Virus record (IMG/VR): IMGVR_UViG_3300020445_000005 | Span: 1-46,691 of that record | Source of the DNA: a virus | Taxonomy: Duplodnaviria > Caudoviricetes | Length of the DNA: 46,691 bases | Strand: one strand, 5' to 3' | Shown here: piece after piece, positions 10,526 to 46,691 of the stretch | How positions within the stretch are numbered: position 1 is the stretch's first letter | Layout: every line of letters starts with the position of its first letter | The notes under the pieces: generated by a model | What the model saw: only the letters and a program-made list of their open reading frames with translations | Databases searched by the model: none | Told to the model about the DNA's origin: nothing | Made by a program: the position numbers and the translations under genes

Positions 10526-11692
10526 ATGTCAGAACTACTAGAAAGTCGCTGGCAGGATACCAAAACTGCTCTTTTAGAAGGCCTTAATGGCAACAAAAAA
10601 GCTGTAATGGCAAGTACTCTAGAAAACACACGCAAGTGGTTGAATGAGACTGCAACAGCTGGTTCTACAAGCGCCGGTAATGTAGCAACTCTAAATAGAG
10701 TTATCCTACCAGTAATCAGAAGGGTCATGCCTACTGTAATAGCCAACGAATTAGTTGGTGTACAGCCTATGACAGGACCAGTGGGTCAAATCCACACATT
10801 AAGAGTACGTTACGCAGATTCATCTGATGGTAACGAAGTTGGTGAAGAAGCATTATCACCATTTAAGATCGCGGCGGCATATTCAGGTAACGCCACTGAC
10901 GCAACACCAAAAGGTGGAGCAACAGCGGCACTTGAAGGTCAAGCAGGTAAGAGATTATCTATCCAGATCTTAAAGCAAACTGTCGAAGCAAAAACTAGAA
11001 AGCTATCAGCTAGATGGACTTTTGAAGCGGCACAAGATGCTCAAGCACAGCAAGGCATCGATATTGAAGCAGAAATTATGGCGGCATTAGCCCAAGAAAT
11101 TACTGCTGAGATCGATCAAGAAGTATTAGCTTCTTTAAGAGCTTTAGCTGGAACGCAAAACCAACAAGCATACGACCAGAACGCTGTAAGCGGTACTGCA
11201 ACATTCGTAGGTGATGAACACGCGGCTTTGGCTGTGATGATCAACCGTGTTGCTAACAACATCGCACAGAGAACTAGACGTGGTGCTGGTAACTATGCTG
11301 TGGTATCACCACACGCATTAACTATCCTACAATCTGCAACAACTTCAGCGTTCGCAAGAACTACTGAAGGTGCATTTGAGGCTCCTACAAATACTAAAAT
11401 GGTTGGAACATTAAATTCAGCTATGAAAGTATATGTAGATTCATATGCCACTGATGCAACAGCAGTATTAGTTGGATACAAAGGTTCAAGTGAATCAGAC
11501 GCACCTGCGTTCTACTGCCCTTACATTCCTTTAATGTCAAGTGGCGTAGTACTAGATCCGTCTAGCTTTGAACCAGTAGTAAGTTTCATGACTAGATACG
11601 GATATGTTGAGTTAAACAACACAGCATCTTCACTAGGTAATGCGGCTGACTACTTAGGTACAGTTACTATTGCGAACGTAACTTTTAGCTAA
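10526..11692 (+). CDS. g23: Major capsid protein (T4 gp23 family)
   Basis: Motifs IRRVMPT.IA.ELVGVQPMTGP.GQI..LR, VEAKTRKL.A.WT.E.AQD, EI.AEID.E, IA.RTRRGAGN, GYKGS.E.DA..FYCPYIPL, FMTRYG. Confidence 0.96.
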   Translation: MSELLESRWQDTKTALLEGLNGNKKAVMASTLENTRKWLNETATAGSTSAGNVATLNRVILPVIRRVMPTVIANELVGVQPMTGPVGQIHTLRVRYADSSDGNEVGEEALSPFKIAAAYSGNATDATPKGGATAALEGQAGKRLSIQILKQTVEAKTRKLSARWTFEAAQDAQAQQGIDIEAEIMAALAQEITAEIDQEVLASLRALAGTQNQQAYDQNAVSGTATFVGDEHAALAVMINRVANNIAQRTRRGAGNYAVVSPHALTILQSATTSAFARTTEGAFEAPTNTKMVGTLNSAMKVYVDSYATDATAVLVGYKGSSESDAPAFYCPYIPLMSSGVVLDPSSFEPVVSFMTRYGYVELNNTASSLGNAADYLGTVTIANVTFS

Positions 11693-11723
11693 TCCATAGG
11701 GTTAGTTACTGAGTAACAACTTT

Positions 11724-11753
11724 AGATAGGCCCTTCGGGGCCTATCTTTTTTT
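11724..11753 (+). terminator. Rho-independent terminator after the capsid gene
   Basis: AGATAGGCCC-TTCG-GGGCCTATCT followed by a T run. Confidence 0.92.
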
Positions 11754-11774: not shown

Positions 11775-11821
11775 ATCGTTCATCCTATCTAGGACGGAAG
11801 TAGCATAATGCGAAGGAACGC
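11775..11821 (+). ncRNA. Glutamine riboswitch aptamer (glnA RNA motif, glutamine-I class)
   Basis: P1 CGTTC/GAACG, P2 TCCT-ATCT-AGGA, linker CGGA, E-loop AGTA...GAA flanking P3 GCA-TAA-TGC. This matches the glnA-motif layout CGUUC...GGAAGUA...GAAGGAACGC as I recall it. Confidence 0.85.
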
Positions 11822-11848
11822 ACTCAAACTTTAACAGGGGAGGGTGTT

Positions 11849-12046
11849 ATGAACAGATTCGATCATTTACATAAACAGTACCGTGAGCAAAAACTGAGAG
11901 CTCGTAAAGAACGCATATTAGCGAACAGCAGAGATGTTGTTGAGGTTAATGGCAATGGTACTTCTGGATATCGTATCAAACACGGTGAAAACAAAGATCG
12001 TGTTGCCGGTCATTTAACGGTTGATCATCCAAATAAGAAAATATAA
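11849..12046 (+). CDS. Small basic protein (65 aa) downstream of the glutamine riboswitch
   Basis: GGAGG RBS; Arg/Lys-rich N-terminal helix. Confidence 0.75.
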   Translation: MNRFDHLHKQYREQKLRARKERILANSRDVVEVNGNGTSGYRIKHGENKDRVAGHLTVDHPNKKI

Positions 12047-12086: not shown

Positions 12087-12115
12087 TTGATTATTTGAAA
12101 AAGAGGTGTTATATT
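12087..12115 (+). promoter_or_regulatory. Sigma70-type promoter
   Basis: TTGATT (12087-12092), 17-nt spacer, TGn-extended TATATT (12110-12115), with an AT-rich upstream tract. Confidence 0.65.
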
Positions 12116-12120
12116 AGTAA

Positions 12121-12338
12121 TATAAGCATTAGGAGAGTAATTAACTCTTAATTATAGTGCAAGGAAGAGCCCTTTACCAGAAGGGGCGAACTTGACTGTC
12201 CAGGGGTGGTACCCAGGGTTTGTAGTAGAAATACGCAGATTCACATCGCATTCACTAGCGGGGATAGGTTGTACGTATTAGAATGGTATTCCGGTACGTG
12301 CTTGTAGGTGTAACCAAGTCCTACCTATTTTGCTTATA
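12121..12338 (+). ncRNA. Unidentified structured RNA, ~218 nt
   Basis: The ends pair (TATAAGCA / TGCTTATA). It contains several internal hairpins, is GC-richer than its flanks, starts at the expected TSS of the sigma70 promoter, and has no credible ORF. Confidence 0.6.
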
Positions 12339-12367: not shown

Positions 12368-12467
12368 TAAATACTTGTGTCTATAGAGCGAGCCGCATTA
12401 AAAGGATTTTAACGGCGGACTTATGGGGACAGAACCCCGTAGACCTAGAACGTCAAAGGAGAAACAA
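12368..12467 (+). promoter_or_regulatory. Late promoter core plus structured 5' leader
   Basis: TAAATA at 12368-12373; stems GTCTAT/GTAGAC, CCGC..TTAAAA/TTTTAA..GCGG and GGGG-ACAGAA-CCCC precede the AAGGAG RBS. Confidence 0.5.
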
Positions 12468-12914
12468 ATGGGAAGACCAATTAATAAAAGATTTTTCGGA
12501 ACACCTACAGCAGGTGGAAACGAAATAAAAGTAGACTTTCATGATGGCTCAGCTGTTACTGAAGGTTATATCGTTAAACAATTAGGATCAAAAAAGTTCC
12601 GTGTTAAAGAAATCGGTGGCTCAACAGAGTACGATCGTTTTTTAACTACAGGTAAATTAGCTTCTGCACTTACAGGTACAGAAATGGCTATTACTGTAAA
12701 AGGTGACGACAACGAAACTTATCAAATTGAAAAGATTGCAGGTAGAAAAGCTACTGTGATTGCACCAGATGGTACAGGTTCAAATGCACTATCAGGAACA
12801 TCATTATCTTGGACATTTACAGCATCTGGTTCAGATGGAGCGGCACAGGTTGAAGAAGCTGGTGACGATGACACTAAAGCAGGTACTGATGATGACGATT
12901 TCGCAAATGCGTAA
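12468..12914 (+). CDS. Hypothetical virion-associated protein (148 aa, MGRPINKRFFG...)
   Basis: The AAGGAG RBS precedes the ATG at 12468 rather than 12423. It has its own late promoter and a downstream UUCG hairpin. Confidence 0.7.
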   Translation: MGRPINKRFFGTPTAGGNEIKVDFHDGSAVTEGYIVKQLGSKKFRVKEIGGSTEYDRFLTTGKLASALTGTEMAITVKGDDNETYQIEKIAGRKATVIAPDGTGSNALSGTSLSWTFTASGSDGAAQVEEAGDDDTKAGTDDDDFANA

Positions 12915-41909: not shown

Positions 41910-42941
41910 ATGGCAGTCGTAAAATCAGCATTTGAGGCACAACACGGATTTAAATCACCAGGATTCACAGTCGATGAACAAGGTAACGTTACCTTACGTA
42001 GTGTAACATATACATACACAGCAGAAGAAACTGATGTATCAGGTGACTATGTTGTTAGAGATGCAGGTGGTAACTTTACATTTGATGGACAGTTTGAATC
42101 AGACGGTATTACATTAAAAACAAATCCAGGCGTTACTTTAACAAGAGGTAGTGCATACGTATTCAATTTAACTTTAAGAACAGTTAACCAAGCAGGACAA
42201 ACACTTGGTAATAATAGTTTCAACGTTTTTAGTATAGATGATAGTGGTGGTTATACATTATATGACACAGGACTATCTTGGTTAAATGCTGGTGGTACAG
42301 ATAAGAAAACAGAATCAGAAGCACAAGGACAATTTACAGGTAAAACAACTTTCACAGTACCAACAAATGCTCCGGCGGCTTTATATTATGGAGATGCTGA
42401 TGCTAATCCAGTAGGAATGTTTACTATTGAAGACCCAACTATTACTGGTGTTGGTAGTTTCTCAAGCATACTTACAACAGGTAATATAACTGCACAAGGT
42501 GAAAATGCTGTAATTACATTATCGCCTACAGGAAGTTCAGGTACAGTAGTAATAAATCCAACAAATGGTGGAACTATTAACAATATGGACGTTAATGCAT
42601 TAAGATTAACGGCTTCAGATAACGTTACTTTAACTGGTGAAAACTCAGACATTAGAATTGCTCCAACAGGATCAGGTGGTACAGTATTGATAAATCCAGC
42701 GGCTGGTGGAACATTAGATAACATGAATATAGGTGCTACGACACCGGGAACGGTTACTTCAACAAATTTAGTTGCGAGTGCAGGGACGCTAAATAATACA
42801 GTAATAGGTAATACTAAACCAAATAAAGCTACGTTTACGACGGGTAATGTACAAGGCGAGCCTACACAAAGTACGGCAATAGCTAATAAGAAGTACGTGG
42901 ACTCAAGAGCGACGGCATTGGCAATAGCATTAGGAAGTTAA
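41910..42941 (+). CDS. Tail fibre-like protein (343 aa)
   Basis: TAAATA at 41889; duplicated GEN..I...PTGS.GTV.INP..GGT..NM repeat; ends ANKKYVD...ALAIALGS. Confidence 0.65.
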   Translation: MAVVKSAFEAQHGFKSPGFTVDEQGNVTLRSVTYTYTAEETDVSGDYVVRDAGGNFTFDGQFESDGITLKTNPGVTLTRGSAYVFNLTLRTVNQAGQTLGNNSFNVFSIDDSGGYTLYDTGLSWLNAGGTDKKTESEAQGQFTGKTTFTVPTNAPAALYYGDADANPVGMFTIEDPTITGVGSFSSILTTGNITAQGENAVITLSPTGSSGTVVINPTNGGTINNMDVNALRLTASDNVTLTGENSDIRIAPTGSGGTVLINPAAGGTLDNMNIGATTPGTVTSTNLVASAGTLNNTVIGNTKPNKATFTTGNVQGEPTQSTAIANKKYVDSRATALAIALGS

Positions 42942-42946
42942 AATAG

Positions 42947-45900
42947 ATGGCTAAACAAAAGATAGATACGTATATATTCCAACCAGGAATTCCCGTTTCA
43001 GAAAACAGAAACCCTCATGCGTATGAATTAATTAAAAATAACGTTGAGTTTATCTGTGACGAAACTGTGGCATGGATTGCCGCACAGGTTTTAGCCAATG
43101 CGGCTGACCCTACTAGCTTCTGGTACAACTATACATACAATTCACCAAAGTGTGAAAGAGATACAAGATACAATTTACAAGGTGTAAATGGTGACGGTGG
43201 TATTTTATACGATTTAAGATATGGCGGAAACGCACAGGCAAGATTTTTAGCAAGTAAATATTGGATTAATTCAACTCCACAGGTTGACGGAGATAGACAA
43301 CCTGAAGTAGCGGCAAAGAACTTTGTTGTTAGTTTAATTAATAACTATATTTTACCTCAAGCAACTTTTACATCTGCACAAAGTCCAGTAGTAACAACAC
43401 AATATACTAACAATGGTTCAAGTTATGAATCAGGATCAGATGCAAGAGTTACTGCCTTGTTTGCAATTATTACAGACGTTATTACAAACGGACTTGATAA
43501 TGTTCCAGCACTTGATAGAACAAAAGTTTCAAGTGTTAAGATGCAGACTCGTGTTCCATCAAACGATTTATTATTAATTACTGATACAACAAACAACGAA
43601 GTTATCTTTAACTTTAGTGATCCTAAATTAGGTGGAAGTTGTGAATTCCAAACAGATGATACTTCACAATTAACTAAAGGTGTTGAAGAAGACTTTCCAA
43701 AGTTCTTAGAAAGAACAGGAACTATTACAACTGTTTATCTAGATAAAAATACAGACAACATAACTTATACAGATAAAGCAGTAGCAGTTTTAGAAGCAAA
43801 CTTAGAATTTGTTAAAAAAGAAACAGTAGCCTGGATTGCGGCAAACGTGGCAAGTGCAACTTCAGGTATGTGGCACAATTATACATACAACACTACCAAG
43901 TGTGAAAGAGATATGGGATTAAACGTAGCTGGTATTACAAAAGATATCAAGTACGGCGGTAATGCAAACACATATCTTAATGCAAGTAAGTATTGGGTAC
44001 AAACAACTCCACAAATTGACGGTGATAGAACTCCAGAGATTGCGGCTAAAAACTTTGCAAGAGATTTAATTAACAATTACATTTTAAAAAATGTTGCATA
44101 CACTTCACAACAAGTTGGAGCAGGTGCAGTATCACAGAATGTTATTTTAAGTTTACCTGAAATAGGTGTTAATACAAGAGTAACTAACTTATTCTTTGTT
44201 ATTACAGATGTAATTGAGAATGGTTTAGACAATTTACCAATTGAAGAAAAAATACCTTTATACTACGACACAGATGATTTACAGATCTTTATAGATCAAG
44301 GTGAAACAAGAACAAGACCATTTGATTTTGGTACTGATGCTATTGAACGTATGAGAGTTTCAAACTCCGTATCCATGCTTGATGCTGACTTTGAATATGG
44401 TCTACAGCCTACGAAGTGGCAAGCGATTGCTATGCAAAGAGGTTATCCAAGTATTTACGAAGTACCAGGTACTGATAAAGAAGTTGCTTCAGTTGTAACT
44501 GATGCTTCAACAGGTACAGGTGGTGTTGGTCAAAGTTTAATTACAGTAACAACAGTTGGTGCTCATGGTATTGTAGCAGGTACACCTATTACAATTAAAG
44601 CTCTTGAAAATAGTATTCAAGGGGCAAGTAGAGCAGAAGGTTCGTTTATAATTTCAACTGTTCCTACTGCAAATACATTTACATTTTTTGCTAAATCAAA
44701 AGTTGGTACAAGTAACGGACAAGTACTTTCAACTTATTACACACAGTTAAGAGAAGCAAACTTTTATACTGGTGCGGCGATTGGTAGTCCAACATTTAGT
44801 ATTATATCACAAGGTACAGCAGGTACATTTACAAACCCATTAGCGGCTCCAAATGGTTCAGACAAAGTTACTTGGATTGGAAACACACCAGAGATTGGTG
44901 CTCCGGTACAAAACGTTGCAGGACAAATTGCAACAGCAGGTACAATAGGTGTTGCGAATGCAAGTAGAACAGCAGGAACTTACACAGCAATAAGTGGTAG
45001 TTCAGATAGTATTGCTTCAGAATTAATTGTTGGTACATTTGATATTGTTATTGACGGTACAGGTGCGGCAACAAGTATAACAAATTTTAAAGGTGGTAGA
45101 AATAACGCAGTAGGCGATACTATCACAGTATTAGACGCTTCATTAGGAGGCGGTGGTGCACCAGCATTAACTTTCCAAGTTGCAACTAAAACAGATGGAA
45201 CAGGTATTGGAAGTGGTGCTCAGGTTACAGTTGTAACAGGTGGTGGCGGAGAAATTGCTACTTGGTCAGTTGCAGGAGATTATGCAAGTGGTGTTAACCA
45301 AATTGCATTAAGTGATGTAACAGGAGTATTAGCAGGACAGGCCATTGATAGAGGAGATGGTACAGCAGTTCACGTATCAAGTATTGTTGGAACTGATGTA
45401 AACTTAGATGGTAATACTTCAACTGCTATTGTTGGTAACAACGTACAATATACAGCAGTTGCAGGAACAAACTATAACAGTACAGGTTTTGGTGCATTGT
45501 GGGATATTGACAGAGCAGGTGGAAACTATACAGTTACACAAAATAATACAGGTGGTGATCAATATGAAGTAGATGATGTTATTGTTGTACTTGGTAACAC
45601 ATTAGGTGGACAAACTACAACTAACGATTGTCGAATTACTGTTAACTCAGTTGATTCAAGCGGATCAATTACATCATTTAGCTCGTCAGGTTCAGCATTT
45701 GACGGTAACGGAAGTTTTAGTAACATCGCTGGTCAAAACATGAACGGTAACGGTTTAGGTGCAATATTTGATGTTACATATACAAACAATGCTTACACAG
45801 TAAGTTTAAAAGATCCAACTTATGCCAATAATGCAACAGGTGTAACACAAGGTGGTGTTGGTACTGGTGCGGCATGGGACGTTGTATTAACAAATAATAC

Positions 45901-46691
45901 TTACAACGTTACAGAAAACGCAAGTGCCGCCGACGCAGGTTATATTGTTGGTGACTTAATTAGAATTCCAGGAACTAACTTTGGTGGGTCAAGTCCAGCA
46001 GAAGATTTAGATATTTCAATAACAGGTGTTGATGGTAGTGGTGGTATTACATCATTTAATGCATCAGGAACAGGTGCCGCGGCACAAGGTACTTTTAGTG
46101 AACCAGCATATACTTACAGTGGTGTTGGATCAAATGCTACATTCAACGTACAATTTAGTGGAACAACTTATACTGCAAGTGTTGTTGCTCCAGGTTCAGG
46201 ATATAGTGCAACAGAAACGTGTGTAATTTCAGGTGCAAACTTAGGTGGTGCAAGTCCGGCCAACGATGCTACAATTACTATTGATACTGTTGACGGTTCA
46301 GGTGTTATTACTGCAATTAGTGTTACAGGTACAGCAGTTAACTCTGCAACTTATACAAACGTAACATCAGGTCAAAACATAGTTGGAGCGGCGGCTTCAT
46401 TTAACATTACTGTAAATTACAATAACAGCTACACAGTTACACAAGGTAACGAAGTAGGAACTAACTATGGTAGTGGTAACACTATTATTGTTTCAGGTGC
46501 AAACTTAGGTGGTACTACACCAACAAACGATTTAACAATTAATGTTACAGGTGCAAATGCCTCAGGTGGTATTACATCATTTAGCTCTTCAGGTACTGCC
46601 GCAGATGCAACGGCGGGATATGCGGCTGGTGATAGATTACAAATTTTAGGAACTAATTTAGGTGGTAGTAGTCCAACACATGACGCTATTG
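42947..46691 (+). CDS. Giant virion/fibre protein, 3'-truncated (>1240 aa), absent from the ORF track
   Basis: Begins MAKQKIDTYIFQPGIP... and I saw no in-frame stop before the window end. Contains two KCERD helical domains, a DADFEYGLQPTKW block and many Gly/Thr-rich GA.F.V...Y.V...G..Y...D...I.G..LGG..P.ND..I repeats. Confidence 0.8.
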   Translation, partial: MAKQKIDTYIFQPGIPVSENRNPHAYELIKNNVEFICDETVAWIAAQVLANAADPTSFWYNYTYNSPKCERDTRYNLQGVNGDGGILYDLRYGGNAQARFLASKYWINSTPQVDGDRQPEVAAKNFVVSLINNYILPQATFTSAQSPVVTTQYTNNGSSYESGSDARVTALFAIITDVITNGLDNVPALDRTKVSSVKMQTRVPSNDLLLITDTTNNEVIFNFSDPKLGGSCEFQTDDTSQLTKGVEEDFPKFLERTGTITTVYLDKNTDNITYTDKAVAVLEANLEFVKKETVAWIAANVASATSGMWHNYTYNTTKCERDMGLNVAGITKDIKYGGNANTYLNASKYWVQTTPQIDGDRTPEIAAKNFARDLINNYILKNVAYTSQQVGAGAVSQNVILSLPEIGVNTRVTNLFFVITDVIENGLDNLPIEEKIPLYYDTDDLQIFIDQGETRTRPFDFGTDAIERMRVSNSVSMLDADFEYGLQPTKWQAIAMQRGYPSIYEVPGTDKEVASVVTDASTGTGGVGQSLITVTTVGAHGIVAGTPITIKALENSIQGASRAEGSFIISTVPTANTFTFFAKSKVGTSNGQVLSTYYTQLREANFYTGAAIGSPTFSIISQGTAGTFTNPLAAPNGSDKVTWIGNTPEIGAPVQNVAGQIATAGTIGVANASRTAGTYTAISGSSDSIASELIVGTFDIVIDGTGAATSITNFKGGRNNAVGDTITVLDASLGGGGAPALTFQVATKTDGTGIGSGAQVTVVTGGGGEIATWSVAGDYASGVNQIALSDVTGVLAGQAIDRGDGTAVHVSSIVGTDVNLDGNTSTAIVGNNVQYTAVAGTNYNSTGFGALWDIDRAGGNYTVTQNNTGGDQYEVDDVIVVLGNTLGGQTTTNDCRITVNSVDSSGSITSFSSSGSAFDGNGSFSNIAGQNMNGNGLGAIFDVTYTNNAYTVSLKDPTYANNATGVTQGGVGTGAAWDVVLTNNTYNVTENASAADAGYIVGDLIRIPGTNFGGSSPAEDLDISITGVDGSGGITSFNASGTGAAAQGTFSEPAYTYSGVGSNATFNVQFSGTTYTASVVAPGSGYSATETCVISGANLGGASPANDATITIDTVDGSGVITAISVTGTAVNSATYTNVTSGQNIVGAAASFNITVNYNNSYTVTQGNEVGTNYGSGNTIIVSGANLGGTTPTNDLTINVTGANASGGITSFSSSGTAADATAGYAAGDRLQILGTNLGGSSPTHDAI

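Follow-up and report, generated by a model that had tools for sequence, protein, structure and literature searches.

We report that a stretch of viral DNA of 46,691 nt (the window; a linear 46.7-kb virus record from a large marine phage, about 15% complete) carries, at 12121-12338 on the plus strand, an RNA of about 217 nt that almost certainly belongs to the manA family (Rfam RF01745). Judged by its sequence, the RNA represents a divergent manA subfamily, which we call class A, and not a new family. The family match, the secondary structure, the covariation of two loop pairs (L5-L7 and L8-L9), a conserved promoter, and a patchy, swappable occurrence are directly supported. Since 2010, manA has counted among the orphan riboswitch candidates, and RNA-only cages that it forms in vitro were reported recently. 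The family and its in vitro cages were already known; what class A adds is comparative evidence for selection on the cage contacts and for the RNA being a gene of its own, and we propose a further loop, L1, as the link between pentamers.

Assignment to the manA family

This RNA was originally predicted as an unidentified multi-stem transcript. In a permissive search, the Rfam manA model aligned with 12129-12334 (model positions 1-192; 45.1 bits; E = 2.9e-10), matching the consensus topology of helices P1 to P9 along its full length, and with this hit to a known family the claim to a novel one falls. The gathering cut-off of RF01745 is 55.2 bits, and the window RNA, at 45.1, falls short of it; Rfam run at gathering cut-offs called nothing over the RNA stretch. 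The manA-type RNA is present in the window as a single copy. Seven other class A copies score 44 to 51 bits against the same model, and the homolog in Pelagibacter phage Mosig, which is 64% identical to the window RNA, reaches 64 bits, above the cut-off. The canonical manA core, ACUGAAUAA ... UAAGG, is absent from the window RNA, whose core reads CAAGGAAGA ... GAACUUG. Since the score lies below the cut-off and the core sequence differs, yet the family model matches, the RNA is best described as a divergent manA subfamily. The original statement that it is not a tRNA, tmRNA, signal recognition particle RNA or RNase P agrees with our searches, in which no such family model matched in the window.

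We also built a covariance model, R1, from the class A alignment. R1 retrieved 13 of 13 canonical manA loci at 33 to 50 bits (11 of these exceed the Rfam manA cut-off), while 0 of 13 control loci scored above 8.7 bits. It further retrieved 5/5 class B and 3/3 class C copies, two groups described below, and 3/6 other candidates. A sequence-only profile retrieved no canonical manA copy.

Compared with the published manA RNAs, as far as the 2010 description documents them (PMC2864571), class A has the same order of helices P1 to P9, GUG after P2, an L5 of GUGGU with its complement in L7, UUG between P8 and P9, complementary L8 and L9, and a promoter at the 5′ end. It differs in its core, which is CAAG-GAAGA/GAA-CUUG rather than the canonical ACU-GAAUAA/UAA-GG. 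Unlike canonical manA, class A has an extra closing stem (P0) and a conserved ACCA in L3, is often followed by a terminator, and occurs in relatives of jumbo phages and in a Pelagibacter phage. The 2010 alignment itself contains other core variants, and two class A motifs were not found in its accessible part, where gaps could mask them (PMC2864571).

Genomic setting

The window encodes portal, head protease and gp23 capsid genes. The major capsid gene together with its terminator (10526-11747, plus strand; terminator at 11724-11747) forms the 5′ border of a variable slot, and its product is 68 to 71% identical to the capsid proteins of jumbo phages of 350 to 470 kb, e.g., Sinorhizobium phage Phosso and Serratia phage BF. 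On the same strand there follow, in this order, a glutamine riboswitch (11775-11824) with a 65-amino-acid ORF (11849-12046), the manA-type RNA, a TAAATA element (12368-12373), a freshwater-2-type leader (12397-12470), and a 148-amino-acid gene (12468-12914) that forms the 3′ border of the slot and has no PHROG or Pfam match. The riboswitch, at 59.5 bits in Rfam, and the ORF behind it, which encodes a basic product (phrog_32989) with no Pfam match, make up a separate cassette (11775-12046). Some relatives have this cassette and others lack it; two loci without it (L002 and L003) still keep the manA-type RNA.

The TAAATA element belongs to the next gene, and similar copies stand just ahead of many genes of the window. 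The motif is under-represented in the window (36 occurrences versus 72 expected), yet it lies in plus-strand intergenic positions ahead of about a dozen genes; its putative role as a late promoter is taken from the late promoters of T4-type phages. The freshwater-2-type leader of the next gene is likewise a separate element. It scores 36 bits, below the cut-off, with 52 to 77 bits in 9 of 10 relatives and 45 bits in one, and in the window's clade its first hairpin is shortened or altered.

Homologs and occupancy of the slot

Homologs came from three sources: relatives of the downstream 148-amino-acid protein (80 loci kept of 191), two DNA patterns (at least 120 and at least 118 loci), and a blastn match in Mosig. 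An RNA copy was present in 210 of the 320 sources gathered. Of these copies, 189 were full length, 106 were unique, and 83 remained below 97% identity; excluding five distant copies (class B) from the 83 gave an alignment of 78. Part of the 5′ core and, with one pattern, also L5 were prescribed by the search patterns, so that invariance at these positions partly reflects how the copies were selected. The 22 copies found via the neighboring gene are free of this bias.

Among cultured phages, only Mosig carried a class A copy. The RNA is unannotated in the Mosig record, which also holds a permuted tmRNA (L081:588-929) about 3 kb upstream of it. Cellular genomes gave 14 pattern matches, three of which were genuine copies. 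Two of the three sit between the same capsid and downstream genes, which indicates phage DNA in a bin; the third comes from a contig of 6 kb. Two contigs with this phage's capsid gene, RNA and downstream gene (L449 and L452) come from a bin bearing the label Candidatus Neomarinimicrobiota and are either binned phage DNA or a hint of the host. Class A is essentially phage-borne.

The downstream gene is common to 80 loci. In 22 of them the slot held class A, in 11 it held class C, in 5 it held class B, and in 42 it held no detected manA (two of the last being short and two having tRNAs). It never held two classes at once, and near-identical neighbors differed in their occupant. With no detected manA in the slot of 42 of 80 relatives, the RNA is dispensable there. 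Class C manA-like RNAs, found in the same slot (L015:2227-2457, L454, L474 and L486), have no Rfam match, score 27 to 29 bits with R1, and carry a palindromic L1. Class B manA-like RNAs (L028:2645-2865, L097, L164, L174 and L180) have the same 5′ core as class A; their L8, ACAGA or CGAGA, matches an L9 of UCUG or UCUCG, respectively, and their L1 is GACG. Structured stretches with GUG-GCA-GAAUAA ... UAA-UGC cores in L463, L481 and L488 (around 401) are not recovered by R1 and may be remodelled manA relatives. In L078 and L079, the slot behind the capsid gene contains a riboswitch-like leader, short ORFs and tRNA genes, and no manA.

Secondary structure

The 218-nt stretch folds better than its shuffles (z = -2.97; 1 of 200 was as good). 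We scanned 24,090 column pairs for covariation, with 40 replicates of a tree-based null, and the 21 that scored best were all inside the modelled helices. Over the 78 homologs, 54 of the 72 pairs in the full structural model show double, compensatory changes, which 0 of 500 shuffles reached, and 90.7% of cells are paired, compared to 38 to 47% in slid controls. All helices covary except the invariant core helix.

The closing stem P0, formed by 12121-12128 and 12331-12338, lies outside the Rfam model; four of its seven pairs show double changes, and 82% of cells are paired. The P1 hairpin (12129-12151) has loop L1, AGUAAUUAA, at 12136-12144, and its register is set by the covarying pairs 12130/12150, 12134/12146 and 12135/12145. 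It is followed at 12154-12194 by the 5′ arm of P2, the conserved core GUG-CAAG-GAAGA ... GAA-CUUG, and P3 (12169-12187) with loop L3, UUACCAGAA. The P4 junction (12195-12269) encloses P5 with L5 GUGGUA (12206-12211), P6 with a GAAA loop (12228-12231), and P7 with L7 AUUCACUA (12250-12257). P8 (L8 UGGUA, 12284-12288) and P9 (L9 with ACCA at 12313-12316) occupy 12271-12324. All of these elements are on the plus strand, and the arrangement from P1 to P9 rests on covariation.

The sequences on which the original prediction was built are all present where it placed them, and the compensatory changes bear out its closing stem, P3, P5 (GGG/CCC), P6 with the GAAA loop, P7, P8 and P9. Its first hairpin, GAGAGT/ACTCTT, was two bases off; the true pairing is 12129-12135/12145-12151 with a 9-nt loop. 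P2 (12154-12157/12325-12328), the core helix CAAG/CUUG (12160-12163/12191-12194) and P4 (12195-12201/12262-12269) were absent from it. Neither of its tertiary pairings is supported: TACCA-TGGTA (L3-L5) has a double change in 0 of 5 pairs and one pair broken in 20 of the 78 copies, and ACTTG-CAAGT has a double change in 0 of 5 and one pair broken in 23 of 78, its ACU/AGU part being too near invariance to argue for or against pairing. Taken together, the 16 alternative pairs from the first hairpin, L3-L5 and ACUUG-CAAGU perform no better than shuffles. The single-sequence fold was also rejected; it misplaces P4, P8 and P9 although it is more stable (-69.5) than the comparative structure, which was evaluated at -55.2 with two mis-set pairs.

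Loop-loop contacts

In place of the two pseudoknots first proposed, L5-L7 and L8-L9 do covary. Both are more complementary than permuted partners, with P = 0.0005 over 28 distinct loop types for L5-L7 and P = 0.0005 over 30 for L8-L9, in permutation and shuffle controls that leave some relatedness. The L5-L7 exchanges run from UGGU/ACCG to UUGU/ACAG to UUAU/AUAG, and those of L8-L9 run from UGGU/ACCA to UGGA/UCCA to UGCU/AGCG. The covariation of L8-L9 is found among 73 canonical manA copies as well. In the window copy, L5-L7 amounts to 4 bp only, one of them G-U, in a shifted register, and only 16 of the 30 L8-L9 types reach 4 bp. L3-L8 forms a perfect 5 bp in the window copy. Its first signal, z = 3.9, became P = 0.05 (16 types) after stem-base trimming and collapse to distinct types; one compensatory case was found (L159), and changes in L8 are usually matched by L9, not by L3. 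Other candidate contacts were discarded: L3-L5 shows no covariation (P = 0.93), nor do L5-L9 and L7-L8 on distinct loop types. L6 is GAAA in the window copy and most others and is non-GNRA in about a dozen.

manA_A0F1 is reported to form a 60-mer cage whose pentamers are joined through intermolecular L5-L7′ and L8-L9′ contacts, and pho34 manA is reported to form a decamer held by L5-L7′, L3-L8′ and a GNRA contact between the L6 loop and a P6 receptor; the cages were assembled in vitro at ~3 mg/mL (main text of Ren et al. 2026, 10.64898/2026.07.01.735769). When our loop numbering is mapped onto that of the preprint by topology, the two manA_A0F1 interfaces are the loop pairs that covary in class A. 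By this mapping, L5-L7 and L8-L9 of class A would correspond to the contacts through which cage-forming manA assembles its pentamers, and we expect that class A RNA would probably form oligomers in vitro.

Among 36 rows of the 2010 manA alignment compared by eye, the gammaproteobacterial rows NZ_AAOU and NZ_AAOJ resemble class A: the core helix has 4 bp, P6 is long, an ACAUCGC linker leads into P7, and the P9 stem is near-identical. They also combine L5 GUUGUG with L7 GACAU as does one class A clade. They differ in that their L3 is complementary to L8, like L3-L8′ of the decamer, whereas L3-L8 is borderline in class A and L8-L9 covaries. This complementarity fits our topology-based mapping of the loops. 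We take the two rows to be Photobacterium. They are probably of the pho34/pho type of the preprint.

Palindromes in loop L1

L1 of the window copy reads AG-UAAUUA-A, with the palindrome UAAUUA at 12138-12143. Among the 78 copies, L1 is UAAUUA in 39, GACG in 12, UAGCG/A in 10, UAGCUA in 8, UUAUAA in 4, UAGCU in 3, UAAUUG in 1, and of another type in 1. A 6-mer palindrome occurs in L1 of 51 of 78 copies and 15 of 28 distinct loops, compared to 3.7 in shuffles that take the copies as independent regardless of their relatedness; in each of six other loops it occurs in 0 of 78. On a tree built without this hairpin, the L1 type changes 19 times. Canonical manA has GACG in 57 of 71 copies and palindromes in 10 of 71. 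By eye, L1 of class C is UUAUAA, UAAUUA or UAAUUG apart from a single UUAUUA, and GGCA was seen in one other variant group. The self-complementary core is just 2 nt in 11 of the 78 loops (UAGCG/A, UCGCU), and the UAAUUA self-duplex is weak (-2.0 kcal/mol).

Retroviral dimer-linkage loops have a 2+6+1 layout, and their GACG kiss comprises two base pairs. Retroviruses use both GACG tetraloops and palindromes with flanking purines for this linkage, as described in the part of PMC516450 dealing with these loops, and L1 alternates between the same two; this is an analogy and no homology. Pairing inside one chain cannot account for palindrome switches like that from AAUU to AGCU. In OLE and GOLLD, palindrome switches are presented as an argument for the solved intermolecular bridges (Kretsch et al. 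2025, PMC12286853). ROOL and GOLLD, as characterized there, resemble class A in being phage-borne, in their kissing-loop bridges and in this use of palindrome switches as intermolecular evidence; they differ in being three to four times longer and unrelated in sequence, and neither has an Rfam match in the window.

From geometry, a double pentamer or a C60-type shell would need one two-fold contact per subunit, and since it would, we predict L1-L1′ as that contact. We lean toward L1-L1′ pairing as what links molecules of separate pentamers. The main text of Ren et al. names no contact between pentamers and does not contain "palindrom" or "two-fold"; the supplement or the deposited decamer and 60-mer models (PDB 23OO, 23NS and 24QE) may already reveal one (10.64898/2026.07.01.735769). 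In the literature, we found no paper on manA promoters, terminators, L1 self-contact or function.

The loop data can also be read in another way. A free-standing manA RNA might act as a monomer or an L1-linked dimer, with L5-L7 and L8-L9 as internal pseudoknots around a protein- or ligand-binding core and cages as a product of high concentration. Covariation is blind to the difference between intra- and intermolecular pairing, so it leaves room for this reading, as do the core, which is unpaired yet conserved, the short loop duplexes of the window copy, and the fact that cages are known only in vitro. We nevertheless regard it as rather unlikely: L5-L7 is intermolecular in the two solved relatives described in the preprint, selection maintains three separate codes of self-recognition, and palindromes that switch in adjacent bases cannot pair within one chain. 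An RNA that assembles with copies of itself remains our preferred reading.

Transcription

A predicted sigma70-type promoter lies at 12087-12115 on the plus strand, with a -35 hexamer TTGATT (12087-12092), a 17-nt spacer, an extended TG, and a -10 hexamer TATATT (12110-12115); it would start transcription at ~12120-12122. The host-type promoter was part of the original prediction. Taken alone, it is at chance level (3 sites versus 3.9 in shuffles), and it is the comparison that upholds it: a promoter stands at a fixed distance, mostly 40 to 42 nt ahead of the core, in 69 of 83 homologs versus 1.9 in shuffles. In canonical manA, a promoter lies directly at the 5′ end in 62 of 71 copies. A terminator follows directly behind the closing stem in 43 of 82 homologs (1.3 in shuffles), TAAATA occurs within 70 nt downstream of 53 of 82 copies, and 14 of 82 have neither. 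The promoter in 69 of 83 and the terminator in 43 of 82 argue that the RNA is probably a free-standing transcript and not a riboswitch. With homolog promoters, covariation and slot occupancy in agreement, the earlier idea of a stand-alone structured phage noncoding RNA with a host-type promoter is supported.

manA has been placed in putative 5′ leaders of metabolic genes or next to tRNAs (Weinberg et al. 2010, PMC2864571; Rfam), and the passages on manA in PMC9964418, PMC12197685 and PMC7657543 handle it as a cis element or 5′ untranslated region motif. On that reading, the window RNA could be a cis-regulatory leader or riboswitch for the downstream gene. No terminator was found behind the window copy and its closest relatives; transcription may therefore continue into the next gene, and either processing or read-through would have to account for the 3′ end. 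The RNA ends 130 nt before the ORF at 12468, Mosig-type copies abut a gene (in Mosig it starts ~20 nt after the RNA), a genuine riboswitch adjoins, and promoters at the 5′ end are compatible with a leader, too. Other observations make this reading improbable. Where homologs have a terminator, it lies wholly behind the closing stem, and we found no riboswitch-type expression platform overlapping the aptamer. The genes downstream of homologs are unrelated, encoding an ssDNA-binding protein, an adenyltransferase, a radical SAM protein and rubrerythrin, and usually have a TAAATA element of their own. Between the RNA and the downstream freshwater-2-type leader, no pair was predicted above 0.1, and the 42 relatives without the RNA have the same downstream gene. 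A second conserved hairpin element, starting ACCUAAGAUGC, was seen after 15 of 71 canonical copies (L338, L339, L342 and L353).

Possible function

Of the functions first suggested for this RNA, that of a structural RNA fits best. A ribozyme, tRNA-like decoy or RNA antitoxin is the least probable reading, for although some copies have tRNA neighbors (3 of 82 loci scanned) or a tRNA-like sequence behind them (7 of 71 canonical copies), the core is intricate and conserved, and the patchy distribution would be typical of counter-defense cassettes, no tRNA or tmRNA was called in the window, ribozyme families are absent among the nine Rfam matches up to E = 10, the tandem repeat arrangement of type III antitoxins is lacking, and the ACCA/UGGU loops vary together instead of staying constant like a mimic of a tRNA end.

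We slightly favor a multivalent, self-assembling RNA particle that binds a host factor over a switch for the next gene. The virus is a T4-like jumbo-phage relative, and the manA-family RNA gene in the variable slot following its capsid gene would be transcribed by the host polymerase as a free-standing RNA that folds as manA. Neighboring molecules would then pair by L5-L7′ and L8-L9′ into pentamer rings, as cryo-EM of relatives suggests, and a two-fold L1-L1′ contact could join 10 molecules into a double ring or 60 into a C60-type shell. Speculatively, the closed particle might hide its ends and loops from nucleases and, by presenting the conserved core many times over, serve as a sink or scaffold during infection, a role that we put forward only tentatively. 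More doubtful still is a general scheme in which manA RNAs would not be riboswitches but phage genes for RNA-only capsules in the infected cell, with three self-recognition codes and with subfamilies of mismatched codes swapped into the same slot by related phages, each particle sequestering or sheltering a factor of host or phage. Expression and particle formation could be examined in a cultured system, Mosig with its Pelagibacter host HTCC1062.

Elsewhere in the window, a long AT-rich open frame with repeated internal motifs runs from near 42928 past the end of the record (42928-46691) and probably encodes a giant tail or virion protein.
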